UHGV virus genome: UHGV-0147806
Source of the DNA: a virus
Length of the DNA stretch: 37,585 nt
Direction: 5' to 3' (one strand)
The notes beneath the pieces were generated by a model. The model worked only from the letters and a program-made list of their open reading frames with translations. It made no database searches and was not told where the DNA came from. The translations under genes were made by a program, and so were the position numbers. Positions 12,919 through 37,585 of the stretch are shown piece by piece. The stretch's first letter is position 1; the number at the start of each line of letters is the position of its first letter.

Positions 12919-12928
12919 GGAGTATGAC

Positions 12929-18104: not shown

Positions 18105-18132
18105 TAAAAAAACCGCTTAATGCGGTTTTTTT
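18105..18132 (+). terminator. tR'-like intrinsic terminator downstream of Q
   Basis: A7-AACCGC-ttaat-GCGGTT-T7; symmetric A/T tracts. Confidence 0.8.
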
Positions 18133-18452: not shown

Positions 18453-18478
18453 AACCGCCTGTTTAGGCGGTTCTTTTT
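18453..18478 (+). terminator. Second intrinsic terminator in the Q-to-lysis spacer
   Basis: AACCGCC-tgttta-GGCGGTT followed by CTTTTT. Confidence 0.6.
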
Positions 18479-19069
18479 GGGCTGGTTTATTGTATGCCAA
18501 ATGATTATTAAAAAGGTTGTGTTAATAACAAAATCCGAAATAATATGCCTGCATATTTTTATCTTGCTTATATTCTGCATATTGTGCATAGCAGGCTCAT
18601 CCCTGCAATCAAAACTGTATGATGAGTATTTTTTGTTTTCCTTTTTTCCAGTCATCTGATGATGACCTGCTTCTTTTTAATCCGGATCGACATCAGTTTT
18701 TTAAGATAATTCCTGCGAGTTATATGCATAAATGCCACAAACTCCGCATTTTATGTGGTTGGGAGTTGCCGGGCGCGCAGTGAGTTTGCTAAGAAAACTC
18801 CTGCATGGTGAATCCCCCTGTGCGGTGGGGTGATACCATTAACCTTTTCTGTCGCCGACAGGTATCACGAACATTTTGTTCACCGGGAGGCACCCGGCAC
18901 CATGCACTTCAATAGATTCTCTCCACATTATGGATATTCTTTCAGAATATCCCACGCAGACTTTGTGTAAATGTTAACAAATGTGCGTTTTATTTGATCT
19001 GATTCGCTGTTTGAGCGTCCAAAACAACGGTATATATAATCCTTTACTATATGACATATGTGAGGAAAA

Positions 19070-19498
19070 ATGGGTTTTCGTAGCGCATCAATTCTTACGT
19101 TGATTATTAGTGGGATTATTATCGGGTGCACTGATGCTGTATCGACAAATTATCATGACCGTACATCATATTACTCCGATAAAGCAATAGAGACACAGTA
19201 TGTGAGTTCATCTGAACGTACTTCTGATGTTAGTGAGGATATCCGTCTGTATGCCCATCAAATCAAGAGCGCCATCGAAAAACAGTTCGGGGATGCGAGT
19301 AAGTATTCAGGAAAAGAGTGTACACTGAGAATGCATATGGCCCCGAATGGCCTTCTACTGGAGGTTAAAAGAGAAAGTGGAGACCTCGATTTATGTCGTG
19401 AAGCGATGAATGCGATAAAGAATGCTGATATACCTGCCCCCCCTTCGCCGGAAGTATATAAAGTATTTCAAAATGGGGTGCTGGATTTTAAACCCTGA
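19070..19498 (+). CDS. Lipoprotein with TolA domain III-like C-terminus (142 aa)
   Basis: Lipobox IIIGC; C-terminal region closely resembles the E. coli TolA C-terminus as I recall it; GAGGA RBS. Confidence 0.75.
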   Translation: MGFRSASILTLIISGIIIGCTDAVSTNYHDRTSYYSDKAIETQYVSSSERTSDVSEDIRLYAHQIKSAIEKQFGDASKYSGKECTLRMHMAPNGLLLEVKRESGDLDLCREAMNAIKNADIPAPPSPEVYKVFQNGVLDFKP

Positions 19499-19648
19499 TA
19501 TTTATTGTTTTGTAATAAACGGTTTCGGCTTAGGTTTGTTCTGACACAGCTACGGCACTGAGCTAAATTTAGCGGATAGTCAGCTCTGAGCCAGTGGCGG
19601 ACGTAACAACTACTATTGCTGAGATTTTAATGGATTGAGGAGCAAGAA

Positions 19649-20044
19649 GTGGGATTAAAGAAAATCGTTATGTTGACTTTTTGGGTCGGTTTTGTTGCGG
19701 GATGCACACCTTTACACCCTTCAGATTGCCACAAAACTACTGCTACAGGTAGTTGCAGTTCAGGACGCTGGGATGATCAGGATGAATGGGGGGCGCAAGC
19801 GCGGGGAATCAGAGCTGCAATTAATGCCAAACTTGATGAGCCGCATAACTGGAAAGGGAAAAAATGCAGGTTGCATATGGAATTCTCTCAGGATGGCACG
19901 GCGTTAAAAATATCTACCAGTAACGGTGATAAAGCCTATTGCGAAGCGATAAAGTCCGCAGCTCATAAAGCCAAATTTCCGGCCTTCAACAATCCGGAAG
20001 TCTACAGAGATTTTCAGAAATCTGGCTTTGACATGCGAGGTTAG
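19649..20044 (+). CDS. Second, more divergent TolA domain III-like lipoprotein (131 aa, GTG start)
   Basis: GTG after GAGGAG; signal peptide with lipobox VAGC; C-terminal region KKCRLHMEFSQDG ... PEVYRDFQKSGFDMRG parallels the first lipoprotein. Confidence 0.65.
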   Translation: MGLKKIVMLTFWVGFVAGCTPLHPSDCHKTTATGSCSSGRWDDQDEWGAQARGIRAAINAKLDEPHNWKGKKCRLHMEFSQDGTALKISTSNGDKAYCEAIKSAAHKAKFPAFNNPEVYRDFQKSGFDMRG

Positions 20045-20169
20045 CTCTTCAATTACTATATCTCATTCATAGCAAACTGACAGATTTGATGATGTTCTAT
20101 ATACGAAACCTGTGATGTCAAGTCTGAGCTAATACAAATAAACATAATATCAGAGAAATACATTTTATT

Positions 20170-20192
20170 AGCTCGCTACGGCGAGCTTTTTA
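20170..20192 (+). terminator. Intrinsic terminator after the lipoprotein genes
   Basis: AGCTCGC-tacg-GCGAGCT followed by TTTTT. Confidence 0.7.
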
Positions 20193-20295
20193 TATTGCAT
20201 CGTCTCCAGCATATATATCAATTAAGGCTCTGATTGATGTGTCTGAAAGCCTACACATAATAACTATGCCATCCGTTCCGTGCGGAGGTGAGGCT

Positions 20296-20511: not shown

Positions 20512-21008
20512 TGCCTCCATCATTACGAAAAGCCGTTGCTGCTGCTATTGGTGGCGGAGCAATTGCTATAGCATCAGTGTTAATCACTGGCCCAAGTGGT
20601 AACGATGGTCTGGAAGGTGTCAGCTACATACCATACAAAGATATTGTTGGTGTATGGACTGTATGTCACGGGCATACAGGAAAAGACATCATGCTCGGTA
20701 AAACGTATACCAAAGCAGAATGCAAAACACTCTTGAATAAAGACCTTGCCACTGTCGCCAGACAAATTAACCCGTACATCAAAGTCGATATACCGGAAAC
20801 AACGCGCGGCGCTCTTTACTCATTCGTTTACAACGTGGGTGCTGGCAATTTCAGAACATCGACGCTTCTTCGCAAAATAAACCAGGGCGATATCAAAGGC
20901 GCATGTGATCAGCTACGTCGCTGGACATATGCTGGCGGTAAGCAATGGAAAGGTCTCATGACTCGTCGTGAGATTGAGCGTGAAATCTGTTTGTGGGGTC
21001 AGCAATGA
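20511..21008 (+). CDS. SAR endolysin (phage 21 R-like lysozyme, 165 aa)
   Basis: N-terminal Gly/Ala-rich signal-arrest-release segment ([18 protein letters not shown]); start overlaps the holin stop. Confidence 0.85.
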
Positions 21009-21469
21009 ACAGAGTAACCGCGATTATCTCCGCTCTGGTTATCTGCATCATCGTCTGCCTGTCATGGGCTGTTAATCATTACCGTGATAACGCCATTACC
21101 TACAAAGCCCAGCGCGACAAAAATGCCAGAGAACTGAAGCTGGCGAACGCGGCAATTACTGACATGCAGATGCGTCAGCGTGATGTTGCTGCGCTCGATG
21201 CAAAATACACGAAGGAGTTAGCTGATGCTAAAGCTGAAAATGATGCTCTGCGTGATGATGTTGCCGCTGGTCGTCGTCGGTTGCACATCAAAGCAGTCTG
21301 TCAGTCAGTGCGTGAAGCCACCACCGCCTCCGGCGTGGATAATGCAGCCTCCCCCCGACTGGCAGACACCGCTGAACGGGATTATTTCACCCTCCGGGAA
21401 CGACTGGTAATGATGCAGGCCCAACTTGAAGGTGCTCAGCAATACATAACCGAGCAGTGTTTAAAGTAA
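21005..21469 (+). CDS. Rz i-spanin
   Basis: ATGA overlap with the endolysin; N-terminal transmembrane segment then coiled coil; contains an embedded lipoprotein ORF in another frame. Confidence 0.85.
21225..21410 (+). CDS. Rz1 o-spanin lipoprotein embedded within Rz in another frame
   Basis: 61-aa ORF with lipobox VVGC and proline-rich mature part, wholly inside Rz. Confidence 0.8.
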
Positions 21470-21606
21470 AATCTTAACTACAATATGATTCATTTTGATG
21501 ATTGTTTCATAAGGAACAGTGAAGTAAGATCTAAGAGGAGTTAAATTTTATACAGTATAATCATAATATTGCAGCAAGGTGGTTATAATTGAAAGAATAT
21601 TTAGAT

Positions 21607-23064
21607 ATGAATACATCTCATGTAAGAGTTGTTACTCATATGTGTGGGTTCCTGGTTTGGCTCTATAGTCTTTCAATGTTGCCACCAATGGTTGTAGCAT
21701 TGTTTTATAAAGAAAAAAGCCTGTTCGTTTTCTTTATAACTTTCGTTATATTTTTTTGCATTGGTGGCGGAGCGTGGTATACAACTAAGAAATCTGGCAT
21801 TCAATTACGTACCCGTGATGGGTTTATTATAATTGTAATGTTTTGGATTTTGTTTTCTGTTATTAGTGCATTCCCTTTATGGATTGACTCAGAACTTAAT
21901 TTAACGTTCATTGATGCTCTGTTTGAAGGGGTTTCTGGAATAACAACAACAGGAGCAACTGTAATTGATGATGTTAGTTCATTACCTCGGGCATATTTGT
22001 ACTATCGGTCACAGTTAAATTTTATAGGTGGTTTAGGAGTTATTGTTCTGGCGGTTGCAGTATTGCCATTATTGGGTATTGGTGGTGCAAAGCTTTATCA
22101 GTCAGAAATGCCGGGGCCATTTAAGGATGACAAACTCACTCCCCGCCTGGCCGATACGTCACGGACACTGTGGATAACTTATTCTTTATTAGGTATTGCT
22201 TGTATTGTCTGTTATAGACTTGCAGGAATGCCTTTGTTTGATGCTATTTGTCACGGGATTTCCACAGTTTCGCTTGGTGGTTTCTCAACTCATAGCGAGA
22301 GTATCGGATATTTTAATAACTATTTGGTTGAGCTGGTGGCTGGTTCTTTTTCCCTGCTATCGGCTTTCAACTTCACTCTTTGGTATATTGTTATTAGCAG
22401 AAAAACGATAAAACCTTTAATCAGAGATATTGAACTTCGTTTCTTTCTGTTAATAGCCTTAGGGGTGATCATTGTTACCTCTTTCCAGGTCTGGCATATA
22501 GGTATGTATGACTTGCATGGAAGTTTTATTCATTCGTTTTTTCTTGCCAGCTCCATGCTCACTGATAATGGTTTAGCTACGCAGGATTATGCAAACTGGC
22601 CCACGCACACGATAGTGTTTTTGCTGTTGTCAAGTTTCTTTGGGGGATGTATAGGTTCAACCTGTGGTGGAATTAAGTCACTTCGATTTCTTATACTTTT
22701 CAAACAAAGCAAACACGAGATAAATCAGCTTTCTCATCCCAGAGCGTTGTTGAGTGTAAATGTAGGAGGGAAGATAGTTACAGATCGTGTAATGAGGTCT
22801 GTATGGAGTTTCTTTTTTCTTTATACTCTCTTCACGGTGTTTTTTATACTGGTGTTAAATGGTATGGGATATGATTTTCTTACATCATTTGCAACAGTGG
22901 CTGCATGTATTAATAATATGGGATTAGGTTTTGGGGCTACTGCATCGTCATTCGGAGTGCTTAATGACATTGCAAAATATTTAATGTGCATAGCTATGAT
23001 TCTTGGTCGCCTTGAAATTTATCCTGTTATTATATTGTTTTCAGGTTTTTTTTGGCGCTCCTAA
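21607..23064 (+). CDS. trkG: TrkG potassium uptake protein (485 aa, Rac cargo gene)
   Basis: Polytopic membrane protein; AT-rich; the translation from MNTSHVRVVTHMCGFLVW matches my recollection of K-12 TrkG. Confidence 0.9.
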   Translation: MNTSHVRVVTHMCGFLVWLYSLSMLPPMVVALFYKEKSLFVFFITFVIFFCIGGGAWYTTKKSGIQLRTRDGFIIIVMFWILFSVISAFPLWIDSELNLTFIDALFEGVSGITTTGATVIDDVSSLPRAYLYYRSQLNFIGGLGVIVLAVAVLPLLGIGGAKLYQSEMPGPFKDDKLTPRLADTSRTLWITYSLLGIACIVCYRLAGMPLFDAICHGISTVSLGGFSTHSESIGYFNNYLVELVAGSFSLLSAFNFTLWYIVISRKTIKPLIRDIELRFFLLIALGVIIVTSFQVWHIGMYDLHGSFIHSFFLASSMLTDNGLATQDYANWPTHTIVFLLLSSFFGGCIGSTCGGIKSLRFLILFKQSKHEINQLSHPRALLSVNVGGKIVTDRVMRSVWSFFFLYTLFTVFFILVLNGMGYDFLTSFATVAACINNMGLGFGATASSFGVLNDIAKYLMCIAMILGRLEIYPVIILFSGFFWRS

Positions 23065-23151
23065 TATATGGCTGATTTATAATTGTGAGTTTAATATTAT
23101 GTTGACTCGCTCATTGATCCAATACCTAACTTTACCAGCAACACCTCCGCC

Positions 23152-23190
23152 CCCAGTAGCACTGGCTGCTGGGGTGCGTTTTATTCATAA
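23152..23190 (+). terminator. Possible intrinsic terminator after trkG
   Basis: CCCAGTAGC-actg-GCTGCTGGG (one mismatch) followed by a T-rich tract. Confidence 0.35.
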
Positions 23191-23201
23191 AGCAAGGCTG
23201 T

Positions 23202-23990
23202 ATGAGCGAGAAATTAAAGATAGTCTATCGCCCATTACAAGAATTGTCACCGTATGCGCACAACGCCAGGACGCACAGTACTGAGCAGGTGGCACAACTG
23301 GTAGAAAGTATTAAGCAATTCGGCTGGACTAATCCGGTGCTGATTGACGAAAAGGGCGAAATTATTGCGGGTCACGGTCGTGTTATGGCGGCTGAAATGC
23401 TCAAAATGGATTCTGTTCCGGTCATTGTTCTGTCTGGCCTGACGGATGAGCAGAAAAAGGCGTACCGCCTGGCAGATAATCGCCTGCCGATGAATGCTGG
23501 CTGGGATGAAGATCTGTTGCGGATGGAGCTGTCGGACCTAATCAATGCTGATTTTGATGTCTCCCTGACAGGCTTCATCCCGGCAGAAATTGATGAACTG
23601 TTGACGGATGTTTTGCCCGGTACAGGAAATGAGGAGGAGCCGTATACGACGAAAATTGATACGCCTGTTTATGAGCCGTCAGGCGGTAAACCGGATATCA
23701 GTGAACTGTACGACGATACGAAAACTCAGGAGCTGATCAGCCGGATACGTTCGGCGTCCCTTGATCCTGATATTGAGAAATTCCTCCTGTGTGCAGCAGA
23801 ACGTCACACGGTGTTTAATTTCAGCAGAATTGCGGACTATTACGCTCATGCCCCCGCTGAAATTCAGTGCCTTTTCGAGGAGTCGGCGCTGGTGATCATT
23901 GATTATCAGCAGGCTATTGAAAATGGATTTGTCCGAATGACGCAGCGCATGGTGGAGATCATGCATGGCGGGGAGGAGGAATATGCGTGA
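23202..23990 (+). CDS. ParB-like nuclease domain protein (262 aa)
   Basis: ParB N-terminal-type motif region (VLIDEKGEIIAGHGR); located upstream of the terminase genes. Confidence 0.7.
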   Translation: MSEKLKIVYRPLQELSPYAHNARTHSTEQVAQLVESIKQFGWTNPVLIDEKGEIIAGHGRVMAAEMLKMDSVPVIVLSGLTDEQKKAYRLADNRLPMNAGWDEDLLRMELSDLINADFDVSLTGFIPAEIDELLTDVLPGTGNEEEPYTTKIDTPVYEPSGGKPDISELYDDTKTQELISRIRSASLDPDIEKFLLCAAERHTVFNFSRIADYYAHAPAEIQCLFEESALVIIDYQQAIENGFVRMTQRMVEIMHGGEEEYA

Positions 23991-24915
23991 TGATTTTTGC
24001 GCCTTTATTCTGACTCACGGGCGACCGGACAAAGTTCTGACTTACCGGACGTTGCGTCGTGCTGGCTATACCGGGAAAATTTTTATCGTTGTTGATGATG
24101 AAGATAAGACACGGCATCAGTACATGGCTGAATTTGGTGAACAGGTGCTGGTATTTTCCAAAGCCGATATTGCTAGTCGTTTTGACGAAGCCGATAATTT
24201 TAGTGACCGCCGCTCAATTTTTTACGCCCGTAATGCCTGTTTCGACCAGGCAAAACTGGTCGGGTGTAAATACTTCATTCAGCTCGATGATGATTATCAC
24301 GAGTTCCAGTTTCGGGTGGATCGCAACTATGACCAGGCCTATTTCCCGATAAGGAAACTGGATGAGATCCTTTCTGAAATGCTTGCGTACTACGAATCAA
24401 TACCTGCTCTTTCCATCGCTATGTCGCAGGGCGGGGATTTTCTTGGTGACAATGGCGGCCATGCTTCGTGGGTGAAACGCAAGGCAATGAACAGCTTTAT
24501 CTGTTCGGTTGATCGACCGTTCTCATTCATGGGGCGCATTAACGAGGATGTGAATACGTACACGAATCTCGGTCGCTGTGGTGAATTGTTTATGACGATC
24601 GGTGCTGTCCAGTTAGGGCAGAAACAGACGCAGAAAAACAGCGGCGGAATGACCGAGCTGTATCTGGATTCCGGAACCTACGTTAAAAGTTTTTACTCCG
24701 TCATGTATGCGCCGTCGTGCGTAAAAATCTCACTTATGGGTGCCAGTCATAAACGCATTCACCATCAGGTCACCTGGAACAACGCTGCAGTAAAAATCCT
24801 TCACGAAAAATACAGGAAGAAGACACCCTGCATATCAATGGGGGTGACAAATGATTCCGTATTCGAAAGTCGAGTCTCTGGCAGCGTGCCGGATGACTGC
24901 ACAACAAATCGCTGA
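23983..24915 (+). CDS. Hypothetical protein, possible GT-A-fold glycosyltransferase-like (about 310 aa)
   Basis: ATG after GGAGGAGGA, overlapping the ParB-like stop; IVVDDEDK and QLDDDY (DxD-like) motifs; function inferred only. Confidence 0.4.
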   Translation: MRDDFCAFILTHGRPDKVLTYRTLRRAGYTGKIFIVVDDEDKTRHQYMAEFGEQVLVFSKADIASRFDEADNFSDRRSIFYARNACFDQAKLVGCKYFIQLDDDYHEFQFRVDRNYDQAYFPIRKLDEILSEMLAYYESIPALSIAMSQGGDFLGDNGGHASWVKRKAMNSFICSVDRPFSFMGRINEDVNTYTNLGRCGELFMTIGAVQLGQKQTQKNSGGMTELYLDSGTYVKSFYSVMYAPSCVKISLMGASHKRIHHQVTWNNAAVKILHEKYRKKTPCISMGVTNDSVFESRVSGSVPDDCTTNR

Positions 24916-25102
24916 CGTTCTGGATGTTGATCTGAACCGACTGAAAGAAAATCGGGAAGCAATGACAGATTTTTATGCGGCCATCCGTAAGGGCAGAGCG
25001 AAAGGTGAAGCCGAGTTACGAGCGGCATTGTTTAAGCTTGCCAGAAAAGGGGATGCCTTTGCTCTGCGCGAACTACTCAGGGTGGATAAAAATCAGGACT
25101 AA
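24851..25102 (+). CDS. Small HTH protein (83 aa)
   Basis: ATG after GGGGTGA; HTH-like MTAQQIADVLDVDLNRL. Confidence 0.45.
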   Translation: MIPYSKVESLAACRMTAQQIADVLDVDLNRLKENREAMTDFYAAIRKGRAKGEAELRAALFKLARKGDAFALRELLRVDKNQD

Positions 25103-25105
25103 CTG

Positions 25106-26200
25106 ATGAGCAGACCGGACTGGGGGGCGTTGCAGCAGGAGTATATTGCTGAATACACCCGCTCCGGTATATCTCCGGTGGCATGGTGTGAAGCAAGGGG
25201 ACTGAATTACGCAACAGCCCGTCGTTACATCAAAAAAACTCCGAAAAATGCGCAGACAGAAATGTGCAAAACTGCGCAAAAAAGTGCGCAGAAAAAATCT
25301 GCGCAGACTGCACAAAAGCGGAACGAAAAATCTCAGGAAAAAAAGCCAGTATTCGATGCGGGCCTGAATGAGGGCGACGCGGAGGAATTTTCGTTCTGTC
25401 CCGATGAATTCGGCATTTCTGACCAGCAGGCTAAGTTTGCGATGCTTGTTGCTCAGGGTAAAAAGCCGACAGAGGCGTACCGACTAGCCGGTTATGAGGG
25501 GCAAGGTGCGACAGCTAACAGCAACGCCAGTCGTATGCTTAGAAATGCCAGGGTTTTTCGCGCTATCAGCTACTTCCGCAATCAGTACCAGAAACGCTAT
25601 ACCGCAGACCTGGATTTACTAGTGAGTCAGTTGATGGCTATTGTCCTGGCCGACCCCAATCAGCTTGCACAATTTCGCCGTGTTAACTGCCGTTATTGCT
25701 GGGGCGAGAATCATCTCTACCAGTGGCGCGATATAGCAGAATTCGACAAGGCAGCGGCGCAGGCTTCCAGAGATGGCAAACCCGAACCGGAATATGGAGG
25801 CCTCGGCTTTGTTGATAACGCCATACCCAATCCGGACTGCCCGAAGTGCTGCGGTGAGGAAACGGGACAGCTTTATATGGCTGATACCACTCTGCTTGAT
25901 GGGGATGCGCGGCAATTATATGCAGGGGCAAAATTCGGAAAATTCGGCGTTGAGATCCTGCTGGAGGATAAGGCTGCCGCCCGGCGTGAATTGTTGCGTT
26001 TGTTTTCTGCTGGCGGGGCTTTATGTGCAGATAAGCGGCTACAGGAACTGGAAATTGAACGGCGCAGAATGGAAAACCAGAAGCTGCGCAAAGAGATCGA
26101 AACGGTGGAAGATAATGAATATCCCCAGCCTGTGGCGATCAATATTAATGTGGTTGATGCCAGAGTAAGGAGTGATGAAGATGATCTCTCCGACGCTTAA
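25106..26200 (+). CDS. Putative terminase small subunit (364 aa; Terminase_2-like central region plus Cys-rich segment)
   Basis: Region FGISDQQAKFAMLVAQGKKPTEAYRLAGYEG ... fits the small-terminase pattern; immediately upstream of and overlapping the large terminase. Confidence 0.5.
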   Translation: MSRPDWGALQQEYIAEYTRSGISPVAWCEARGLNYATARRYIKKTPKNAQTEMCKTAQKSAQKKSAQTAQKRNEKSQEKKPVFDAGLNEGDAEEFSFCPDEFGISDQQAKFAMLVAQGKKPTEAYRLAGYEGQGATANSNASRMLRNARVFRAISYFRNQYQKRYTADLDLLVSQLMAIVLADPNQLAQFRRVNCRYCWGENHLYQWRDIAEFDKAAAQASRDGKPEPEYGGLGFVDNAIPNPDCPKCCGEETGQLYMADTTLLDGDARQLYAGAKFGKFGVEILLEDKAAARRELLRLFSAGGALCADKRLQELEIERRRMENQKLRKEIETVEDNEYPQPVAININVVDARVRSDEDDLSDA

Positions 26201-27197
26201 TGTGCCTCAGGCGCGATTTCTTTCAATGCCCCATAAATTTAAAGCCTATATTGCTGGTTTTGGCTCGGGCAAAACATGGGTTGGGTGTGGCGGCATATGC
26301 AAGGGGATTTGGGAGCATCCAGGTATAAATCAGGGATATTTTGCGCCAACGTATCCCCAAATTCGCGATATTTTTTACCCTACAGTGGAAGAAGTTGCTG
26401 CTGACTGGGGATTGAACGTAAAAATTAATGAGGGAAATAAAGAGGTTCACTTTTATTACGGACGCCAGTATCGGGGAACCACTATCTGCAGATCGATGGA
26501 GAAGCCACAAACGATCGTCGGTTTCAAAATTGGTAATGCGTTGGTGGATGAACTGGACATTTTGCCGAAGGAAAAAGCCAGAACGGCGTGGCGCAAGATA
26601 ATTGCACGTATGCGTTATAAGATTGATGGACTTCGCAACGGTATTGACGTTACAACCACGCCGGAAGGATTCAAATTTGTCTACGAGCAGTTTGTTAAAG
26701 CCGTGCGTGAAAAAACAGAGCTGGCCTCACTGTATGGTCTGGTGCAGGCATCTACTTTCGATAATGAAAAGAACCTGCCAGCAGATTACATTCCTTCGCT
26801 TCTTGAATCATACCCTCCAGAGCTGATTAAAGCCTATCTTCGAGGACAGTTTACTAACCTGACAAGTGGTACTGTTTACCATCAGTTTGACCGGAAACTG
26901 AATAATTGCGAAGAAGTGGAGCAGCCAGGGGAGCCGATTTATATTGGGATGGATTTTAACGTTGGAAAGATGGCGGGAATCGTCCATGTGCTGCGTTTGG
27001 GGCTTCCATGTGCGGTAACTGAAATCATCAATGCCTACGATACGCCGGATATGATCCGCATCATTAAAGAACGCTTCTGGCTGTATGATGGGAATGATTA
27101 CCGGAAAGTGAGGGAAATTTATATTTATCCAGATGCTTCCGGGGATTCCAGAAAATCAAGTAACGCAAGTACGACGGATATAGCCCAGCTTAAGTAG
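26172..27197 (+). CDS. Terminase large subunit, N-terminal 341 codons ending at an in-frame amber TAG
   Basis: Walker A-like AGFGSGKT; ORF ends at TAG 27195-27197 although the same frame continues for 95 more sense codons. Confidence 0.8.
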   Translation: MMKMISPTLNVPQARFLSMPHKFKAYIAGFGSGKTWVGCGGICKGIWEHPGINQGYFAPTYPQIRDIFYPTVEEVAADWGLNVKINEGNKEVHFYYGRQYRGTTICRSMEKPQTIVGFKIGNALVDELDILPKEKARTAWRKIIARMRYKIDGLRNGIDVTTTPEGFKFVYEQFVKAVREKTELASLYGLVQASTFDNEKNLPADYIPSLLESYPPELIKAYLRGQFTNLTSGTVYHQFDRKLNNCEEVEQPGEPIYIGMDFNVGKMAGIVHVLRLGLPCAVTEIINAYDTPDMIRIIKERFWLYDGNDYRKVREIYIYPDASGDSRKSSNASTTDIAQLK

Positions 27198-27482
27198 GCT
27201 GGTTTTAACGTTGTGGTGAACAGCTCGAACCCGCCAGTAAAAGATCGCGTTAACTCAATGAATGCAATGTTCTGCAATGCCAATGGTGAGCGTCGCTATA
27301 AAGTTAATGTGAAGCGTTGCCCGTTATATGCCGAATCTCTGGAGCAACAGGTCTGGGATGAGAAGGGGGAGCCTGATAAAAAATCTGGCAATGATCACCC
27401 GAATGATGCCGGAGGTTATTTCATCGTTAAGCAATTCCCTATTGTCAAACCGACCGGAAGAGTCACATCACTTCGGATTTAA
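27198..27482 (+). pseudogene. Terminase large subunit C-terminal continuation, downstream of the in-frame TAG
   Basis: Same frame as 26172..27197; combined length about 437 codons, typical for a large terminase. Confidence 0.6.
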
Positions 27483-27484
27483 TT

Positions 27485-28891
27485 ATGGCTGATATATCAA
27501 CACCCAACCTCGACTATAACGATATGCTGGAGGCGTGGGATATTAACGACGCACTGATGGGCGGTACGCTTGAAATGCGCAGGCAGGGGGAAAATTATCT
27601 CCCAAAATGGCCTAACGAAGATGAAGACGCTTATAAAAAACGCCTGTCTGTGGCTACGCTACTTCCTGTGTATGAAGAAAGCATCAAGCAAAATATTGGG
27701 CGCATATTTGCAGAGCCGACAGTATTGAGTGAGGAAACGCCGGCAAAAATCAGGGAATATGCAGAAAATATCGACATGGAGGGGAGCCGACTGGATGTGT
27801 GGGCACAGCAATTTTTCAGCCTCGCATTTCAGTATGGTGTGGCACATGCGCTGGTGGACTATCCACGAACGGATATGAAAGAGATTCGGACAAAAGCCGA
27901 TGAAAACGCGACCGGTGGTCGTCCGTACGTTACGATGCTGAATCCACGCCAGGTTATTGGATGGAAATCGAAAGTTGAAAAAGGGAAAGTTGTTCTCACT
28001 GATTTGCGTATAAAAGAGGTCATCATTATTGATGGTGATGATTTCGGGCAGAAGAAGGTGGAGCAGATCCGCCATATTATGCCCCGTCGAGTTGAAATTT
28101 ATCGACGTAGCGAAGGCACTAATGGCGAATCTGTCTGGACGCTTCATGAGTCATGGAATACCAGCCGTGATGATATTCCTCTGGTAACACTGTACACGAA
28201 GAAAACAGGATTTATGCGTGGTACACCGCCATTGCTTAATCTTGGCTTGCTGAATATCAAGCACTGGCAAAGCCAGAGCGAGCAGGACAATATTCTTCAT
28301 GTTGCCCGCGTTCCATTGCTGGTGGCCTACGGGCTGGACAGGAATGAAGAACTGACGGTTGGTGCATCCACCGCTACGATTTTTGAGGACAGAACAAAAA
28401 ATGGCCTCGAATATGTTGAACATAGTGGCGCAGCGATAGAATCTGGCGAAACATCACTTGAGAAGCTGGAAAATCAGATGCGTCATGCCGGCGCTAAACT
28501 TCTGCGTGCTGAAAATACATCCACCAAATCTGTTGATCAGACTAATGAAGAGCGAATGCAGGAAAACTCGCCGCTTTATACAATGGCGAACTCCCTCGAA
28601 GATGCCCTCGATAATATTCTCCAGATAATGGCGGAATGGATCGGAGAGAGTTGCGGTGGCAATGTGGATGTGCGCACTGAACTGGATGTATCTGCCCAGG
28701 TGTTTGACTCATCCTCCGCGCTGGCTGTTCAGTCATTGCGTCAGGGCGGTGATATACGTCAGATTGATGCGGTTCGGGTGTTGCAGGCGTTGAAATTTAT
28801 CGATCAGGATTCCCGTCCAGAGGAAGTGATCGATGAATTAAAAAATCAGAGTGTAATGCTGATGGAAATCAATGATGCAAACCGTGAATGA
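27485..28891 (+). CDS. Portal protein (468 aa)
   Basis: Size and position immediately after the terminase. Confidence 0.7.
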   Translation: MADISTPNLDYNDMLEAWDINDALMGGTLEMRRQGENYLPKWPNEDEDAYKKRLSVATLLPVYEESIKQNIGRIFAEPTVLSEETPAKIREYAENIDMEGSRLDVWAQQFFSLAFQYGVAHALVDYPRTDMKEIRTKADENATGGRPYVTMLNPRQVIGWKSKVEKGKVVLTDLRIKEVIIIDGDDFGQKKVEQIRHIMPRRVEIYRRSEGTNGESVWTLHESWNTSRDDIPLVTLYTKKTGFMRGTPPLLNLGLLNIKHWQSQSEQDNILHVARVPLLVAYGLDRNEELTVGASTATIFEDRTKNGLEYVEHSGAAIESGETSLEKLENQMRHAGAKLLRAENTSTKSVDQTNEERMQENSPLYTMANSLEDALDNILQIMAEWIGESCGGNVDVRTELDVSAQVFDSSSALAVQSLRQGGDIRQIDAVRVLQALKFIDQDSRPEEVIDELKNQSVMLMEINDANRE

Positions 28892-29987
28892 ACGGCTGCG
28901 TGATGAATCAATTGCTCATGCAGTCTGGATATCCCGCTATAGCACTGGCGTGGCTGCCAGAATGGTGAAAATACTGAATGACAGCGATGCGGAACTTACT
29001 GCTCGCCTGCTGATAGCACTGGACAGCCTCGATCCAGGTAGTTTTACCGTTAAGCGCCTGGAGTCACTTCTGGCGAGCGTCAGAGAGGTTAACCGCACTG
29101 CTATTAACAGCATGTTTACCAGTCTCTCCGGAGAGCTGAACGAGCTGGCAATTTATGAGGCTGGTTATCAGTTAAGTCTGTTTGATTCTATGCTACCTGA
29201 TTTTGTTGCTGATGTTCACCCTCTGGTTGGTATCTCTCCTGATGCACTTTATGCCGCTGCAATGGCGCGACCATTCCAGGGACGACTGCTCAGTGAGTGG
29301 ACCTCAGATCTTGAGGCGGATCGGCTCAGACGCATAACAAATACAGTGCGTCAGGGTTTTTTGCTGGGGGATACCAATGAGCAGATCGCAAGAAAAATTC
29401 GGGGACATGTCAGTAAGGGATTTCAGGATGGTGCATTGCAGATGAGCCGGGCTAATGCGGCCAGCATTGCAAAAACAGCGGTTGGACATCTTGCTGCTAC
29501 TGCCCGTGAGAGTTTTGCCAGCGCGAATAATGATTTGATTAAGGGTAAGCAATGGTTATCAACGCTTGATAATCGTACTACGCCACAATGTCGAATCAGG
29601 GATCGCCTCAAATATACGCTGAATAATAAACCTGTAGGTCACAGCGTGCCTTATTTGCAGGGGCCGGGAAAAATTCATTTCTGCTGCCGCTCAACGGAAA
29701 CGTTCATTCTGAAATCAGCGAAGGAACTGGGTATTGATGTTCGCGATATTTCCCCGGCTGAGCGGGCCAGCATGGATGGCGTGGTGGCCGGAGATACAAC
29801 CTACAGGGAATGGTTTTTGCGTCAGCCTTACACCAGACAAAAACAGATTGTGGGGGAAAGCCGAGCAAAGCTGATTCGGGATGGTGGTATGTCGCCAGAT
29901 GAATTTTACACCGATAAAGGCGAATGGCTGACGCTGAAGCAGCTCCGTGAGCGTGATGCACAGGTATTCAGAAAAGCAGGGATTTAA
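28872..29987 (+). CDS. Head morphogenesis protein (Mu F / SPP1 gp7-like, 371 aa)
   Basis: Position after the portal, overlapping its 3' end. Confidence 0.65.
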   Translation: MMQTVNERLRDESIAHAVWISRYSTGVAARMVKILNDSDAELTARLLIALDSLDPGSFTVKRLESLLASVREVNRTAINSMFTSLSGELNELAIYEAGYQLSLFDSMLPDFVADVHPLVGISPDALYAAAMARPFQGRLLSEWTSDLEADRLRRITNTVRQGFLLGDTNEQIARKIRGHVSKGFQDGALQMSRANAASIAKTAVGHLAATARESFASANNDLIKGKQWLSTLDNRTTPQCRIRDRLKYTLNNKPVGHSVPYLQGPGKIHFCCRSTETFILKSAKELGIDVRDISPAERASMDGVVAGDTTYREWFLRQPYTRQKQIVGESRAKLIRDGGMSPDEFYTDKGEWLTLKQLRERDAQVFRKAGI

Positions 29988-30006
29988 ATAAATCATTTAT
30001 TACAAC

Positions 30007-30031
30007 AGGCTACCTTCGGGTGGCCTTTTTT
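30007..30031 (+). terminator. Intrinsic terminator-like hairpin between head morphogenesis and scaffold genes
   Basis: GGCTACC-ttcg-GGTGGCC (one G-U pair) followed by TTTTTT. Confidence 0.6.
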
Positions 30032-30091
30032 ATTGCTGCGATCCGGATGGTGAGCAGCGTAACTGTCGGAAGACTTAAACCAGGTACTAAT

Positions 30092-30856
30092 ATGAAACTG
30101 AAAACGGTCGAGATTAACGGAAAACAATACGCAGAAATTGATACTGCTGGCCTGCCAGTTTATGTGCACGACGATGGTAAAGAAATTGGCTTCGATGCAC
30201 CGCTGGCGACAAAAAAAATTACAGAGCTTAATGGCGAGGCAAAAAATCATCGCCTGGCTAAAGAAGCTGCAGAGGAAAAACTGGCTAAGTTTGCCGCTAT
30301 CGAAGACCCGAAGAAGGCGATCGAGGCACTGGAAATGCTGTCAAAAATCGACCAGAAAAAGCTGCTCGATGCGGGACAGGTTGACCAGGTTAAGGCAGAA
30401 ATTACGAAAAATTTTCAGCAGCAATTAGATGAAGAAAAGCAACGCTCTCAGATGCTGGAGAAGCAGCTTTACGATTCTATGATTGGCGGTAGTTTTGCGG
30501 GTTCAAAATATATTGCCGATAAAATTGCGATCCCGGCAGATTTATTACAAGCCCGCTTCGGGCAGGCATTCAAAGTGGAAGAAGGGAGGATCGTTGCTTA
30601 TGACGCTTCCGGCAACAAAATTTATTCCCGCGCGAAGCCTGGCGAACTGGCGCAGTTTGATGAGGCGCTGGAGTTCCTTGTCGAAAATTACCCTCAGAAA
30701 GACTACATCCTGAAAGCCAGTGGCAACAATGGCGGCGGCTCCCGTCCGACACAGCATGATATTGGTCAGAAAACGATGAAACGCTCTGCTTTTGATGCAC
30801 TGGATGTTGCAGGTAAGCAAAACGCATTGAAAGACGGTATCACAATCGTTGATTAA
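30092..30856 (+). CDS. Scaffolding protein (about 255 aa, coiled-coil rich)
   Basis: ATG at 30092 downstream of the terminator; charged coiled-coil segments (EAAEEKLAKFAAIEDPKKAIEALEML ...). Confidence 0.6.
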   Translation: MKLKTVEINGKQYAEIDTAGLPVYVHDDGKEIGFDAPLATKKITELNGEAKNHRLAKEAAEEKLAKFAAIEDPKKAIEALEMLSKIDQKKLLDAGQVDQVKAEITKNFQQQLDEEKQRSQMLEKQLYDSMIGGSFAGSKYIADKIAIPADLLQARFGQAFKVEEGRIVAYDASGNKIYSRAKPGELAQFDEALEFLVENYPQKDYILKASGNNGGGSRPTQHDIGQKTMKRSAFDALDVAGKQNALKDGITIVD

Positions 30857-30954
30857 CACATTTGTCAGCTTCCGGATGGGAGCTGGTGTCAGGGCTGGAT
30901 AGCTCATTACTCCATCTATTCACAATTACGCAAATTTTTAAGGAATATTTAATT

Positions 30955-31527
30955 ATGGCTGGAAATACCCTGACCGGGTTGATCCCGACTATTTATACCG
31001 CCCTGGATGTTGTATCCCGTGAGCAGGTAGGTTTTATCCCTGCGGTAGCAAAAAACGCAAAAGCTGACGCCGCAGCAAAAGATCAGACGGTAACCGCGCC
31101 AGTTGCGCCTGAGGCGAAAACCGAAGATATCGTACCGGGGCCGTCAGCTCCGAATACCGGTGATCAAAATATTGGCACTGTTGATGTAAAAATTACTAAA
31201 TCCAAAATGGCACCGGTTAAATGGAATGGTGAAGAACAACTGGCTCTTGGCCCTTCAGGGACTTACAACACCATTCTGGCTGATCAGTTCAAGCAGGCTT
31301 TTCGCGCCCTTGCAAACGAGGTTGAGGCTGATCTTGGTGCGTTGTATTTCGGTGCTTCCCGCGCCGTGGGAACCGCAGGGACAACGCCGTTTGGTGTTAA
31401 AGATGATCTTTCTGATGCTGCTCTGGCTCGTCAGGTTACCGCAGCAGATGAAGCACCTACGATAACCAGAAAAAAAAATTCCCCGGCTGCCGTGATCGCA
31501 AAAGCCAGTGCTGAGGCGATTAGTTGA
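30955..31527 (+). CDS. Capsid-like protein, short (190 aa); possibly a 3'-truncated major capsid gene
   Basis: ATG after AAGGAATATTTAATT; occupies the position expected for the major capsid gene but is too short for one. Confidence 0.35.
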   Translation: MAGNTLTGLIPTIYTALDVVSREQVGFIPAVAKNAKADAAAKDQTVTAPVAPEAKTEDIVPGPSAPNTGDQNIGTVDVKITKSKMAPVKWNGEEQLALGPSGTYNTILADQFKQAFRALANEVEADLGALYFGASRAVGTAGTTPFGVKDDLSDAALARQVTAADEAPTITRKKNSPAAVIAKASAEAIS

Positions 31528-31575
31528 TTTTCCGTTATTCCTCCTGTGGTACTGCCCTACAGGGGGACGCATTGA

Positions 31576-32037
31576 ATGAGGTTATGGATGTTTATTCTTA
31601 ATCAGAAAATTATCATTGGTGGAGAACGCTGGTTTACGCCAATGAAGGACTTAAAACCTGTAGACGGGTTAAAACTGTTGGTGGCAAGCAGCGATAACGA
31701 TCAGTATCGCTCCCGTAATGCATTAATCCGTCGCCACATTGAGAAAATGGATGCCAGTTTGCACGTCGGAACGAAGGAGTTTGATATTTCAAAGGTTTCC
31801 GAGGTGGATTCTGTTGATGATTTACTCATTGATAATGCCGCTCGTTATCTGCTGAAAGACTGGAAAGGGGTTGGTGAACTGGTTAATGGTGTTGAGGTTG
31901 CACTGGAATATACGGCAGAACGAGGGATCGCGCTGCTTAAGCAGAATCCAGAGTTGTACTGGCAGATCCTTGCAGAAGCAGCCAGCATCGCCCAGGGTAA
32001 AGAGCAGCAGAAGCAGGATACGATAAAAAAGCCATAG
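31576..32037 (+). CDS. Tail assembly chaperone (lambda G-like, 153 aa)
   Basis: Located directly upstream of the tape measure gene; ends two codons after an A_AAA_AAG slippery heptamer. Confidence 0.65.
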   Translation: MRLWMFILNQKIIIGGERWFTPMKDLKPVDGLKLLVASSDNDQYRSRNALIRRHIEKMDASLHVGTKEFDISKVSEVDSVDDLLIDNAARYLLKDWKGVGELVNGVEVALEYTAERGIALLKQNPELYWQILAEAASIAQGKEQQKQDTIKKP

Positions 32038-32345
32038 CTGCCCAGCGGTGGTTATCGGAGTTCGGGGGAGAAAGGGGGGAAAAGGCAAGATGGAAGCGAG
32101 AAAAACTCAGGTTGCCACCGATACCGGAACCAGAAATAGACCCGGTGCTTAAGGAGTTGTTGTACGCCTATTCGGTAATATCCCGTGCCCGACGTTATGC
32201 TGGAATGGCTGGGGTGCCTTTGCCTTTATCTCTGACAGAGATAAATGAATATTTAGCCACTCATCCGGTATTGATTGAGCGCGATGAATTTGAAGCAGTG
32301 ATCTTTGCACTGGATGACCAGTATTTTCAGGAGCAGTGTGTGTAG
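31576..32345 (+). CDS. Tail assembly chaperone G-T fusion produced by -1 frameshift at 32025-32031
   Basis: Hand translation of the -1 frame gives ...AIAAQRWLSEFGGERGEKARWKREKLRLPPIPEPEIDPVLKELL...QEQCV*; the G/G-T arrangement upstream of a tape measure gene is conserved in long-tailed phages. Confidence 0.55.
32025..32031 (+). promoter_or_regulatory. Slippery heptamer A_AAA_AAG for -1 programmed ribosomal frameshift (G to G-T)
   Basis: Heptamer is in register with the G frame; the -1 frame is open from 32001 to 32345. Confidence 0.65.
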
Positions 32346-32465
32346 TTGTTAATTACGTACACTCTGTTACAGAGATGTGATGGTGTCTTTAATTAAATCG
32401 ATGATGCTCCTGGAGAAAAGCATTGCGTGGCCTCGTAATCGCTATATCTACTATTATGTCGCCTG

Positions 32466-32490
32466 AAACCCACTTCGCGGTGGGTTTTTT
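32466..32490 (+). terminator. Intrinsic terminator-like hairpin between G-T and the tape measure gene
   Basis: AACCCAC-ttcgcg-GTGGGTT followed by TTTTTT. Confidence 0.55.
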
Positions 32491-32510
32491 GTTGTCAGGA
32501 GTTTTAATAA

Positions 32511-35500
32511 ATGGCAGAGCAAACCTCGCGTCTCGCAATAATTATTGATAGCACTGGAGCGAAAAATAATGCTGACAATCTGACCTCCTCATTAGTCAAA
32601 ATGACGCAGGCTGGGGAAACTGCTGCAAATAGCGCAGGGAAAGTGACTAAGGCAACAGAAGATGAGAAGAACGCGCTCGCAAAATTAAAAGCAGCTATTG
32701 ATCCAGTTGGTGCCGCAATTGATACTGTCGGTCGACGCTATTCTGAATTAAAGAAATTTTTCGATAAAGGGCTTATTGATAAAGAAGAATATGAATTTCT
32801 TGTCCGTAAACTTAATGAAACCACAGAGGAATTGAGCGGGGTTGCGCAAGCGCAGAGAGAAGCCGAGAAGGCCGGAAAACTTGCTGCCGCCCAGCAGGAA
32901 GCGCAGGCTCAGGCCTTTCAAAGAATGCTGGACAAGATCGACCCTCTGGCTGCGGCGCTAAGAAATCTTGAACAACAGCATGATGAACTTAATGCTGCGT
33001 TTGCATCCGGGAAAATAAATGGTTCTCAGTTTGAGAATTATAGCCGAAAAATACAGGAAACACGGCGAGAGCTTACCGGAGAGGCTCAGGCAGAGCGAGA
33101 AGCAGCAAAAGCGCATGATGAACAGGTTGTTGCTTTGCAACGTCTGATTGCTCAACTTGATCCTGTCGGAACTGCTTTTAATCGTCTGGTAGAACAACAG
33201 AAACAGCTCAATGAAGCAAAAGCTAAGGGGATGCTTTCTCCTGAAATGTATGAGGAGCTTTCTGGAAAACTTCGTGCTATGCGGAGTGAGCTTGAGGTTA
33301 CTCAATCACAATTAAGCAAAACCGGAATGTCGGCAAAACAAACGGCTTTTGCTATGCGCATGTTGCCTGCACAAATGACGGATATTGTTGTTGGGTTGTC
33401 CACTGGTCAGTCGCCATTTATGGTGTTAATGCAGCAGGGCGGCCAGCTAAAAGATATGTTCGGTGGGATTGGCCCGGCGATCAAAGGTGTAGGTTCTTAT
33501 GTGCTGGGATTAATTAATCCTTTTACCCTGGCCGCAGCAGCCGTTGGGGTCTTAGGACTGGCTTACTATAAAGGCTCTCAGGAGCAGGACGAATTTAATA
33601 AATCTCTTATTCTTACCGGAAATCAGTTGGGGACAACCAGCGGGCAATTGGGCGATATAGCTCAACGTGCCGGGAATGCGGCTGATTCGACAACTGGTGC
33701 TGCGGCGGCAGTATTAAATCAGCTTGTGCGTTCGGGAAAGGTAGCGAGCAGTTCGCTGGAGCAAGTGACGACAGCGATAGTAAAAACGAGCGAAGTAACA
33801 GGAATATCAACCGAACAACTGGTTAATGACTTCAATGAAATTGCAAAGGATCCTGTCAGTGCCATATCAAAACTTAATGATCAGTACCATTTTCTGACAC
33901 TTGCGACTTATAACCAGATTAAGGCGCTACAGGATGAAGGGAACCAGCAGGAGGCCGCCCGCATTGCGACAGAAGAATACTCATCCTCAATGATCCAGCG
34001 CACCAACCAGATTAAAGAAAATCTTGGTTATCTTGAGACTGCATGGAAAGCTGTCGCAGACTCCGCAAAATGGGCATGGGATTCCATGCTGGATATTGGC
34101 CGTGAGGCCTCCCTTGATCAAAAAATCTCAGATGTTCTCCGTCAAATTGATGAAATAGAAAAAAATACCCGACCCGGAGTTTTCGGGTTAGGTGGCATTG
34201 GAGATGGCGGAGCTCAAAATAAAAGGCTGGCACGATTAAAGCAGCAATTGGGCGTACTTCAAGCAGAAAAAATTGCTCAGGACGTACTAAATTCATCAAT
34301 AAACGATTACAACAAGCGACAACAGGAAGGAATTGAACTCAGACAGAGAGCAGATGCCTTTTCAAAACAATATCAGACCCGGGAGCAGCAGAGAGCTAGT
34401 GAACTTGCAAAACTGGAAAAGCTAAAGAATCAGTATTCAAAGGAAGAATATAATAATCTTATCGCTCAAATAAATGAGCGTTATAAAGATCCAAAGCAAC
34501 CAAAGGCGAAAGGTTATTCTGATGATGCAGCCCAACGAATGATTGATCATCTGAATCAACAGAATGCGTTACTAAGTTCACAAGCTGAGTTGACCGTTAA
34601 ATTAAGTTCCTCTGAACAGGAACTGGTTAAGTGGCGTCAGCGGATTGCCGACCTAGAGTCACGACCATCATCGAAATTAACCCAGGATCAGAAATCGCTT
34701 CTCTTACACCGGGAAGAAATAACCACGTTGATGGAGAAAAATGTTGCGATTGAAAAAAATAACAGGCTAATCAAGGAATCCGCCGAAATAACAGCATGGC
34801 GTGATTCATTGCAGGCTTCGATTGATAATCGTCAGCAGGGGTATGATATTCAGATTGCTGGTTATGGGGTTGGCGATAAAAATCAGCAACGCCAGCAGGA
34901 ATTACTGCGGATTGAACATGGATATAACAATCAGCGTCTGCAACTTGAACGTGACTATGCAGATAAATCCCGTGGAATGTCAGATCATGTTTTTCAAGAG
35001 AAAATGCAGGCTCTGAATGATGCTCTGGAACGGGAAAAAGAAATTGTCAGACAGAAAAACGAGCAGCTCGATATTCAGGCAGGAGACTGGGTTAGTGGTG
35101 CCTCCCAGGGATTCAATAACTGGCTGGATGACACTAAGGATATCAGTGAGCAGATAAAATCAACCACGACTCAGATGTTTGATGGGATGACCGATGCGCT
35201 GGGTGATTTTGTCACGACAGGCAAGGCAAATTTTCGTTCTTTCGCTACTTCCGTGATTTCGGATCTTAGTCGAATAGCATTAAAGGCTTCAATTACTGGG
35301 ATTATCGACAGCATTAGTAACAGTTCTTCTGGGGGGATTTTAGGAACTATCGGGAGTGCTATTAGTAAATTTATTCCGAATGCAAAGGGCGGTGTTTATG
35401 AGTCTCCGTCATTGAGCACGTATTCGAACGGTATTTATGATTCCCCGCAATTTTTTGCTTTTGCAAAAGGGGCTGGTGTTTTTGGTGAGGCTGGACCGGA

Positions 35501-35744
35501 AGCCATTATGCCATTAACACGAACTTCCGATGGTTCTCTTGGTGTCAGAGCTATTAATAGTAAAAGTGGTAATGGAGGCGGAGATATTACCTATGCCCCT
35601 GTATACCAAATCACTATTCAAAATGACGGCCAGAATGGAGAGATTGGCCCTCAGGCAATAAAAGCACTTATGGGGATGGTTGATCAGCGGGTGCAGGGCA
35701 ATCTGTTAAATATGCGACGTGATGGGGGAATGTTAAGTGGCTAA
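32511..35744 (+). CDS. Tail tape measure protein (1077 aa)
   Basis: Very long, coiled-coil-rich ORF after G/G-T. Confidence 0.9.
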
Positions 35745-36075
35745 TACGGAAGAATTTCACTGGTTACCAGAGGATGGAATGAAAACAGAAAATAAACCAT
35801 CGATAAAAACTGTAAGATTTGGTGATGGTTATGAGCAACGAAGTCCAAATGGACTTAATCATTCTCTGCGCGTTTTCACCTGTGATTTCAAAGTTGAGGC
35901 GAATGAACGTGATTCATTTGAAAAATTTTTAGCCCGGCATGAAGGCTATAAATCTTTTTTTTGGCGCCCGCCGGGTATTAACAGAAAAATCAGAGTGGTG
36001 TGTCGAACGTGGTCAGCGACAGAACATATCACCTATACCGATTTTTCGTGTCAGTTTGACGAAGTGGTGATCTGA
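35737..36075 (+). CDS. Minor tail protein M (lambda M-like, 112 aa)
   Basis: Overlaps the tape measure stop; [12 protein letters not shown] motif resembles lambda M as I recall it. Confidence 0.8.
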
Positions 36076-37001
36076 TGCAGGACATACAACAGGAAACGCT
36101 GAATGAATGCATTCGTGCGGAGCAGTCGGCCAGCGTGGTGCTCTGGGAAATCGACCTGACCGAGGTAGGCGGGGATCGCTACTTTTTCTGCAATGAGCAG
36201 AACGAGAAAGGAGAGTCTGTCACCTGGCAGAGTCGGCAGTATCAGGCCTATCCCATTCAGGGGAGTGGATTTGAGATGAACGGCAAAGGTGCCAGTGCAA
36301 GGCCAACGCTGAAAGTCTCTAATCTGCACGGCATGGTCACCGGGATGGCGGAAGACCTGCAGAGTCTGGTCGGCGGAACGGTGGTCAGGCGTAAGGTTTA
36401 CGCCCGTTTTCTGGATGCGGTGAACTTCGTCAACGGAAACAGTGACGCCGATCCGGAGCAGGAGGTGATCAGCCGCTGGCGTATTGAGCAGTGCAGCGAA
36501 CTGAGCGCGGTCAGTGCCTCCTTTGTACTGTCCACGCCGACGGAAACGGACGGCGCTGTTTTTCCGGGGCGCATCATGCTTGCTAATACCTGCACCTGGA
36601 CCTATCGCGGTGATGAGTGCGGTTATCACGGTCCGGCGGTCGCGGATGAATATGACCAGCCAACGTCCGATACCCATAGTGTTAGCGGTACGGCTGCTTC
36701 AGCCGGTGCACATACCCATTCGATAACATTTGTTTCAGGTGGCACCAAAGGTGCTCCGGGAAGTGGATCACCTGATTATTCTAAATACAGTGTTAACACT
36801 TCTTCTGCAGGCGCTCATACGCACTCTGTATCGGGTACTGCTGCAAGCGCAGGTGCACACGCACATACTGTAGGTATTGGTGCGCATACGCACTCCGTTG
36901 CGATTGGTTCACATGGACACACCATCACCGTTAACGCAGCTGGTAACGCGGAAAACACCGTCAAAAACATCGCATTTAACTATATTGTGAGGCTTGCATA
37001 A
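36075..37001 (+). CDS. Chimeric ORF: lambda L-like minor tail protein (residues 1-199) fused to a side-tail-fibre C-terminus with His-x-His repeats
   Basis: N-terminal two thirds closely resemble lambda L as I recall it; after QPTSD the sequence switches to GAHTHS repeats ending [11 protein letters not shown]. Confidence 0.75.
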
Positions 37002-37585
37002 TGGCATTCAGAATGAGTGAACAACCACGGACCATAAAAATTTATAATCTGCTGGCCGGAACTAATGAATTTATTGGTGAAGGTGATGCATATATTCCGC
37101 CTCATACAGGTCTGCCAGCAAACAGTACCGATATTGCACCGCCAGATATTCCGGCAGGCTTCGTGGCTGTTTTCAACAGTGATGAGGCATCGTGGCATCT
37201 CGTTGAAGACCATCGGGGTAAAACGGTTTATGACGTAGCGTCAGGGGACGCGTTATTTATTTCTGAACTCGGTCCGTTACCGGAAAATGTTACCTGGTTA
37301 TCGCCGGAAGGGGAGTTTCAGAAGTGGAACGGCACAGCCTGGGTGAAGGATACGGAAGCAGAAAAACTGTTCCGGATCCGGGAGGCGGAAGAAACAAAAA
37401 ACAACCTGATGCAGGTAGCCAGTGAGCATATTGCGCCGCTTCAGGATGCTGCAGATCTGGAAATTGCAACGGAGGAAGAAATCTCGTTGCTGGAAGCATG
37501 GAAAAAGTATCGGGTATTGCTGAACCGTGTTGATACGTCAACTGCACCTGATATTGAGTGGCCTACGAACCCTGTCAGGGAGTAA
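37001..37585 (+). CDS. tfaR: Tail fibre assembly protein (TfaR-like, 194 aa)
   Basis: The translation matches my recollection of Rac TfaR; start overlaps the upstream stop. Confidence 0.85.

Follow-up and report, generated by a model that had tools for sequence, protein, structure and literature searches.

What became of the major capsid gene in the prophage carried by UHGV virus genome UHGV-0147806? In the window, by which we mean the whole 37,585-nt stretch of DNA analyzed, an ORF of only 190 aa occupies the capsid position. The sequence-only reading that drew attention to this locus listed portal, Mu-F-like, scaffold, 190-aa ORF and G/G-T chaperone in that order, an order with which our Pfam, PHROG and frame evidence agrees. 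It marked an interval ending at 31575, which is the last base before the next ORF; the 190-aa ORF itself ends at 31527. As these features are read directly from the letters, they call for no model of chance.

The window is a Rac prophage of E. coli, from intR to tfa. Positions 1-21000 are 99.9% identical to regions annotated intR, xisR, ralR, recT, recE, racC, ydaE, kilR, sieB ... essD, rrrD, rzpD, trkG, and the synteny of the Rac early region (intR-xisR-ralR-recT-recE-racC-kilR-sieB ... trkG) is present, with the same order in the annotated relative. The first letter of the window is 49 bp beyond intR, short of the chromosome flank; in the closest complete genome, ttcA adjoins intR. We assign the element to Rac because its early region matches annotated Rac genes next to ttcA. 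The labels "capsid-position ORF", "G/G-T chaperone" and "Rac-like", which had been given without database searches, were all borne out (by PHROG 283, PHROG 313 and early-region synteny, respectively).

Several features of the early and middle region are worth recording in their own right. Three consecutive plus-strand ORFs at 11827-14829 (363, 415 and 227 aa) lack Pfam domains and match PADLOC PDLC03004, PDLC03005 and PDLC03006 (Hp1, Hp2 and Hp3; 5e-41, 1e-10 and 4e-11); RefSeq describes the first as a PD-(D/E)XK nuclease domain protein, and the trio is possibly a candidate cassette of anti-phage cargo in this part of Rac. Just 5′ of the small terminase gene, at 23202-24915, a ParB_N protein (YnaK-like), whose N-terminus matches PADLOC "MTase_II" at 1.5e-38, overlaps by 26 nt a TET-associated glycosyltransferase (Pfam TAGT, 4e-34). 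This pair may constitute a DNA-modification module; K-12 Rac keeps ynaK and lacks the TAGT gene. In the interval that separates the Q-like antiterminator region from the lysis cassette, two adjacent ORFs, at 19070-19498 (142 aa) and 19649-20044 (131 aa), both have a TolA C-terminal domain (2e-23 and 1e-14, respectively), one copy being annotated as a tolA pseudogene in a related genome; they may be decoys of the Tol system. Finally, one 276-aa ORF at 10699-11529 joins DUF1627 and DUF977, in place of which the closest complete genome has a DUF1627 pseudogene and a separate DUF977 gene.

For the late region, our intact references were E. coli 50579417 (NZ_CP033884, 4,516,446-4,522,026; L001) and "Salmonella phage SPF_0923" (ON032529; L002). 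Both have the same gene order from scaffold to YdaY: capsid, a 58-aa gene, genes of 131, 127 and 126 aa, terminator and tube. Table 1 collects the features discussed below.

Table 1. Late-region features of the window and gene segments lost from it. Positions are those of the window; lost segments are described by their size or residues in the intact references.
Feature	Position	Strand	Basis
Small terminase	25106-26200	+	
Large terminase, first part (341 aa; 338 aa from annotated start)	26172-27197	+	
terL amber codon, CAG to TAG, codon 339	27195-27197	+	Sole mismatch to L001 terL
Large terminase, second part (89 aa)	27213-27482	+	
Portal, DUF4055, PHROG 145	27485-28891	+	Profile searches
Mu-F-like head morphogenesis	28872-29987	+	
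Head scaffolding protein, intact	30020-30856	+	Pfam DUF6651 1e-60; PHROG 784; PHROG 206; collinear with L001
190-aa ORF	ATG 30955 to TGA 31527	+	ORF scan, translation
Major capsid 5′ remnant, codons 1-161 of 379, P22-coat family	30955-31437	+	PHROG 283 and identity to WP_020233804
Deletion junction, 2-bp TT microhomology common to both parental breakpoints	31436-31437	+	Three-way comparison of window, L001 left and L001 right
Tail tube 3′ remnant, codons 292-320 and stop, in frame with capsid part	31438-31527	+	Alignment to L001 15893-16855 (Phage_tube_2)
A9 run, AGA AAA AAA AAT (RKKN), native tail tube 3′ end	31470-31478	+	L001 comparison
Native spacer, tail tube stop to G	31528-31587	+	Collinear with L001 and L002
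Tail assembly chaperone G (YdaY family)	31588-32037	+	PHROG 313 4e-46; Pfam PF27119 Phage_YdaY label on identical genes
Slippery A_AAA_AAG (32025-32031) and -1 frame T extension	32025-32345	+	Frame check; Pfam Phage_TAC_18 (weak)
Tape measure	32511-35744	+	
L::Stf chimera, L residues 1-199 and side tail fibre C-terminal 109 aa	36075-37001	+	Pfam Phage_tail_L and Phage_fiber; L001/L014 comparison
Lost: capsid residues 162-379 (of 379-aa P22-coat-family protein)			L001/L002 comparison
Lost: 58-aa gene of unknown function			Between capsid and adaptor in L001/L002
Lost: head-tail adaptor Ad1, head closure Hc1, tail completion/Neck1 (131, 127, 126 aa)			PHROGs
Lost: 130-aa tail terminator			Pfam Phage_tail_terminator_5
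Lost: tail tube residues 1-291 (of 320 aa)			Pfam Phage_tube_2

The genes on either side of the 190-aa ORF frame the problem. Upstream, the scaffold is the last undamaged head gene. Downstream, the chaperone locus has three hallmarks of a G/G-T gene that can be read from sequence: a slippery heptamer two codons before the G stop, an open -1 frame beyond it and a slot between the tube and tape measure genes. The slippery site and T extension would give a G-T product, and the conceptual fusion matches PHROG 313 over positions 20-246 of 258. The start of G (ydaY) is ambiguous, with candidates at ATG 31576 (153 aa), ATG 31588 (149 aa, chosen by most gene callers) and TTG 31678 (119 aa, K-12-style); an internal ATG at 31642 is preceded by GGTGGAG.

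An HMM search with the 190-aa product, as the sequence-only reading had proposed, gave a partial match. Residues 3-169 of the product align with PHROG 283 ("major head protein"), over profile positions 2-164 of 385 only. By comparison, the intact 379-aa homologue covers positions 2-383 of 385 and matches Pfam P22_CoatProtein (PF11651) at 1e-12, with 48 bits against a cut-off of 24. Residues 1-161 are identical, without a single difference, to residues 1-161 of WP_020233804, the L001 capsid. The ORF also has the same start codon position and lies in the orthologous slot directly after the DUF6651 scaffold, but its profile match does not span the whole family length (about 380-420 residues). Because only residues 1-161 are kept, at the orthologous position, we regard the ORF as a fragment of a PHROG 283 member, not as a member.

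The remaining residues, 162-190 (TAADEAPTITRKKNSPAAVIAKASAEAIS), are the counterpart of tail tube residues 292-320 and differ from those of L001 by three substitutions. They do not make the product a member of the tail tube family (PF18906 Phage_tube_2 / PHROG 290), whose domain spans residues 4-293 of the intact 320-aa protein, and the surviving segment lies essentially outside it. The 190-aa ORF is therefore an in-frame capsid(1-161)::tail-tube(292-320) chimera, in which the capsid gene's own ribosome binding site and start codon and the tube gene's own stop codon are kept. Pfam and NCBIfam searches with the ORF returned zero matches; the intact capsid, tail tube and G likewise have no match in NCBIfam, and a sequence search of the intact capsid protein against solved structures found no relative at E ≤ 1.

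Comparison with intact relatives shows how the two remnants came together. By blastn, window 21005-31437 aligns with L001 3003-13438 at 99.5% identity and window 31436-36672 with L001 16764-21998 at 97.9% identity, and L002 gives equivalent block coordinates. Between these blocks, 3327 bp of L001 are absent from the window, leaving a clean gap with zero inserted bases. The left parental sequence reads CGTCAGGTT/CTGGAG and the right one GAGCATT/ACCGCAG (the slash marks the breakpoint); the window reads CGTCAGGTTACCGCAG across the junction. The breakpoints fall after capsid codon 161 and before tail tube codon 292. Since both lie between codons and 3327 is divisible by three (3 × 1109 codons), the remnants read as a single ORF. 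When window 30000-32500 was searched by megablast against 5426 complete E. coli genomes and the phage collection, the query was always split, with its bases 1-1438 and the rest matching at separate places, and no record covered at least 80% of it at one place.

These results settle the choice that the sequence-only reading had posed between deletion and frameshift: it had thought a deletion likelier, and the collinear blocks on both flanks of a 3327-bp gap show one. The synteny comparison with intact Rac-like prophages that it had suggested points the same way, the relatives having the full head-tail stretch from which the window is missing 3327 bp. Its view of a truncated capsid holds in part. 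The ORF in the capsid position is indeed truncated by deletion; it is also an in-frame chimera, whose last 29 codons, including the A9 homopolymer, are the 3′ end of the tube gene. We found no evidence against the deletion itself, and we put at about 95% the probability that a capsid-to-tube deletion in an E. coli Rac prophage explains the 190-aa ORF.

The origin of the A9 run bears on another explanation, in which a small indel or slippage at this homopolymer truncated the capsid gene and the remainder of that gene still lies downstream. The run does sit inside the ORF, and both its position and the early closure of all frames after it, as previously described, were confirmed from the sequence. 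It lies, however, 33 nt after the junction, in frame, within tube-derived sequence. At the same site L001 has TGT for AAT, giving A7 and RKKC, so that A9 versus A7 is a substitution polymorphism rather than a length difference and has no role in the truncation. Furthermore, none of the three frames stays open for more than about 50 nt past the run, no frameshift restores a long ORF, and capsid C-terminal coding sequence is found nowhere in the window. The tube origin of the run together with the frame check refutes an A9 frameshift, to which we assign next to no probability.

We next consider how the deletion arose. Local alignment of the sequences within 100 bp of each breakpoint is no better than that of shuffled sequences (264 of 300 shuffles score at least as high), and at least 2 bp of microhomology occurs in 16% of random junctions simulated between the capsid and tube genes. 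Homology-mediated deletion is thus ruled out, with alignment at shuffle level and a 2-bp microhomology within chance (P = 0.16). An IS-mediated deletion is ruled out as well, there being no extra bases at the junction and no IS remnant. The junction signature instead points to loss of the 3327 bp in a single illegitimate recombination event, independent of homology and at most assisted by microhomology. Such an event would join capsid codon 161 to tube codon 292 at the TT dinucleotide; the late operon would lose 3327 bp, and the in-frame fusion would keep the capsid start and the tube stop.

Seven genes are affected by this deletion (Table 1). When the intact products of these seven genes were used as tblastn queries against all of the window, the only matches were the two remnants inside the 190-aa ORF, with no second copies. 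This agrees with the earlier observation that a full-length major capsid, head-tail connector and tail tube are missing. It also speaks against the case that the sequence-only reading had named as its own refutation, a complete known head or tail component with capsid genes encoded elsewhere in the prophage: the profile match is partial, and the window holds no second copies. The earlier list of missing genes was right for capsid, connector and tube, and had overlooked the loss of the tail terminator and neck, an amber codon in terL and a second large deletion further downstream.

A junction known from a single assembled sequence might reflect an error of assembly or of prophage extraction, with the true genome intact. 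The junction is indeed absent from all 5426 complete E. coli genomes by megablast, among which 707 carry the intact capsid-to-ydaY stretch (at least 80% coverage), and an exact junction scan of GTDB species-representative genomes gave 0 matches, as expected because E. coli has one representative there. Against an artefact, the exact 190-aa protein occurs on 86 contigs from independent NCBI, ENA and Logan assemblies (the longest 699 kb), under the name "hypothetical protein [Escherichia coli]", and its exact product in 173 blocks of the assembly index. All ten loci that we fetched, from NCBI isolate assemblies and ENA metagenomes on contigs of up to 212 kb, have the identical 50-nt junction. 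Over window 20955-37585 (16.6 kb) they are 99.94-100% identical to the window, and because they differ from it by 0-10 SNPs, we treat them as independent samples. The gene pattern is the same in 10 of 10: split terL, 190-aa ORF, YdaY, tape measure, M, a 308-aa L::Stf ORF and tfa. The 190-aa form is confined to such near-identical sequences. An artefact is accordingly vanishingly improbable; the junction marks a genuine allele that one E. coli lineage has inherited, and together with the terL amber allele it provides a clean marker of the carrier clade.

The fetched loci also show what lies beyond the right end of the window. In all seven that extend past tfa (L003-L009, about 16844-20293), tfa is followed by chromosomal sitDCBA-like ABC transporter genes, a set comprising two ABC-3 permeases, an ATPase and a ZnuA-family binding protein. 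In K-12, pinR and ynaE stand to the right of Rac; the right end of the present Rac copy is therefore arranged differently.

The capsid-to-tube deletion is not the only lesion in this element. The large terminase gene is split in two by a single C-to-T change at 27195. A 31-nt allele-specific search of the 5426 complete E. coli genomes found CAG in 543 of them and TAG in none. Further downstream, a second deletion removes the C-terminus of L, K, I, J, lom and most of stf, and fuses L in frame to the side tail fibre gene at a 3-bp ATA microhomology (about 36669-36671); this junction was found in none of the complete E. coli genomes searched. From its gene content, an element without capsid, connector, terminator, tube, tail tip and complete terminase should be unable to make particles by itself, because of three independent lesions: the capsid-tube deletion, the terL amber and the L::Stf deletion.

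Loss of these genes could in principle be tolerated if the element were a satellite-like parasite that is packaged by a helper Rac-like phage and has dispensed with capsid and tail genes of its own. It does keep an integrase, excisionase, small terminase, portal, Mu-F-like protein, scaffold, tape measure and chaperones. In gene order and sequence, however, it is a full-size Rac-like prophage (98-99.5% identity) apart from two random-looking deletions, and its large terminase is truncated by the amber codon. Moreover, the capsid-size redirection and helper-sensing genes typical of satellites are absent, and at about 37.6 kb the element is near full phage size (SPF_0923 is 35.5 kb). We consider a satellite lifestyle extremely unlikely.

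Might the chimera instead be retained because it does something, for example as a capsid N-terminal fragment with a dominant-negative, poisoning effect on procapsid assembly in superinfecting Rac-like phages? The native ribosome binding site, start and stop are kept, the upstream scaffold and portal genes are intact, and the allele persists in a lineage that has been sampled many times. Both large deletions are also in frame, an outcome that could hint at selection. Yet the prior for an in-frame outcome is 1/3 per deletion, so that both would be in frame with a chance of about 1/9 if frames were random, which is mildly unexpected but not significant. Persistence may equally reflect recent clonal descent, as the carriers are near-identical, too much alike for selection to be tested. 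In a lysogen, the late operon is normally silent, and the terL amber in the same operon suggests relaxed selection. Nor do Pfam and NCBIfam give any family or defence-system match. A retained, functional chimera thus seems very doubtful, and we are just as skeptical of the more specific proposal that the capsid::tube chimera, perhaps with L::Stf, was created by deletion and is maintained as a prophage-encoded exclusion factor.

Together, these findings suggest a capsid::tube chimera without function in a locked-in cryptic prophage that one E. coli lineage has inherited vertically. What we describe is ordinary, textbook prophage decay: events of this kind were known before, the particular allele alone being undescribed. 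Its significance extends little beyond annotation, in that a protein deposited as a hypothetical protein joins, through a deletion, parts of two structural genes, and merits a flag as a pseudogene remnant. It also adds a further example of illegitimate deletions at the level of microhomology eroding morphogenesis modules while the early region (recET, kilR, sieB, trkG and candidate defence cargo) is kept.

Among known systems, the closest are the intact Rac-like late regions of NZ_CP033884 and ON032529. These share the order of the window at 98-99.5% identity from the lysis genes through trkG, ParB_N, TAGT, terS, terL, portal, Mu-F and scaffold to the capsid 5′ end, and the match resumes at the tube 3′ end with G/GT, tape measure, M and L. 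They keep the full set of capsid-to-tube genes, from which the window differs by the missing 3327 bp, as well as by the terL amber and the L::Stf deletion. The ON4706xx "phage" records are prophages predicted in clinical isolates (bioRxiv 10.1101/2022.06.29.498070) and, being predictions, are no proof that an intact module yields virions.

Rac, the classical defective prophage of K-12, is described as the first such element found in that strain, and rac-like prophages elsewhere are variably complete (PMC4632033). In O157, defective lambdoid prophages (Sp10 / CP-933R and others) are excisable or can be rescued by recombination (PMC2669165, PMC4632033, PMC3945230). The O157 prophages include Rac-like elements at ttcA that persist despite inactivating deletions and insertions; we liken them to the present element by description only, and their lesions differ from those of the window.

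The K-12 Rac prophage (ynaK-ydaY-tmpR) belongs to the same family, with intR, recET, kilR, sieB and trkG in its early region and ydaY as the same G gene. It too is defective through deletion of morphogenesis genes. The K-12 deletion is much larger, however: it joins ynaK directly to ydaY, and TAGT, the small and large terminase genes, portal, Mu-F, scaffold, capsid, connectors and tube are all gone. On the right it breaks off at about 17014 in L001 (equivalent to about 31686 in the window), some 250 bp downstream of the right breakpoint described here. The deletions in K-12 and in the window are independent events, both of which end near the tube/G boundary.
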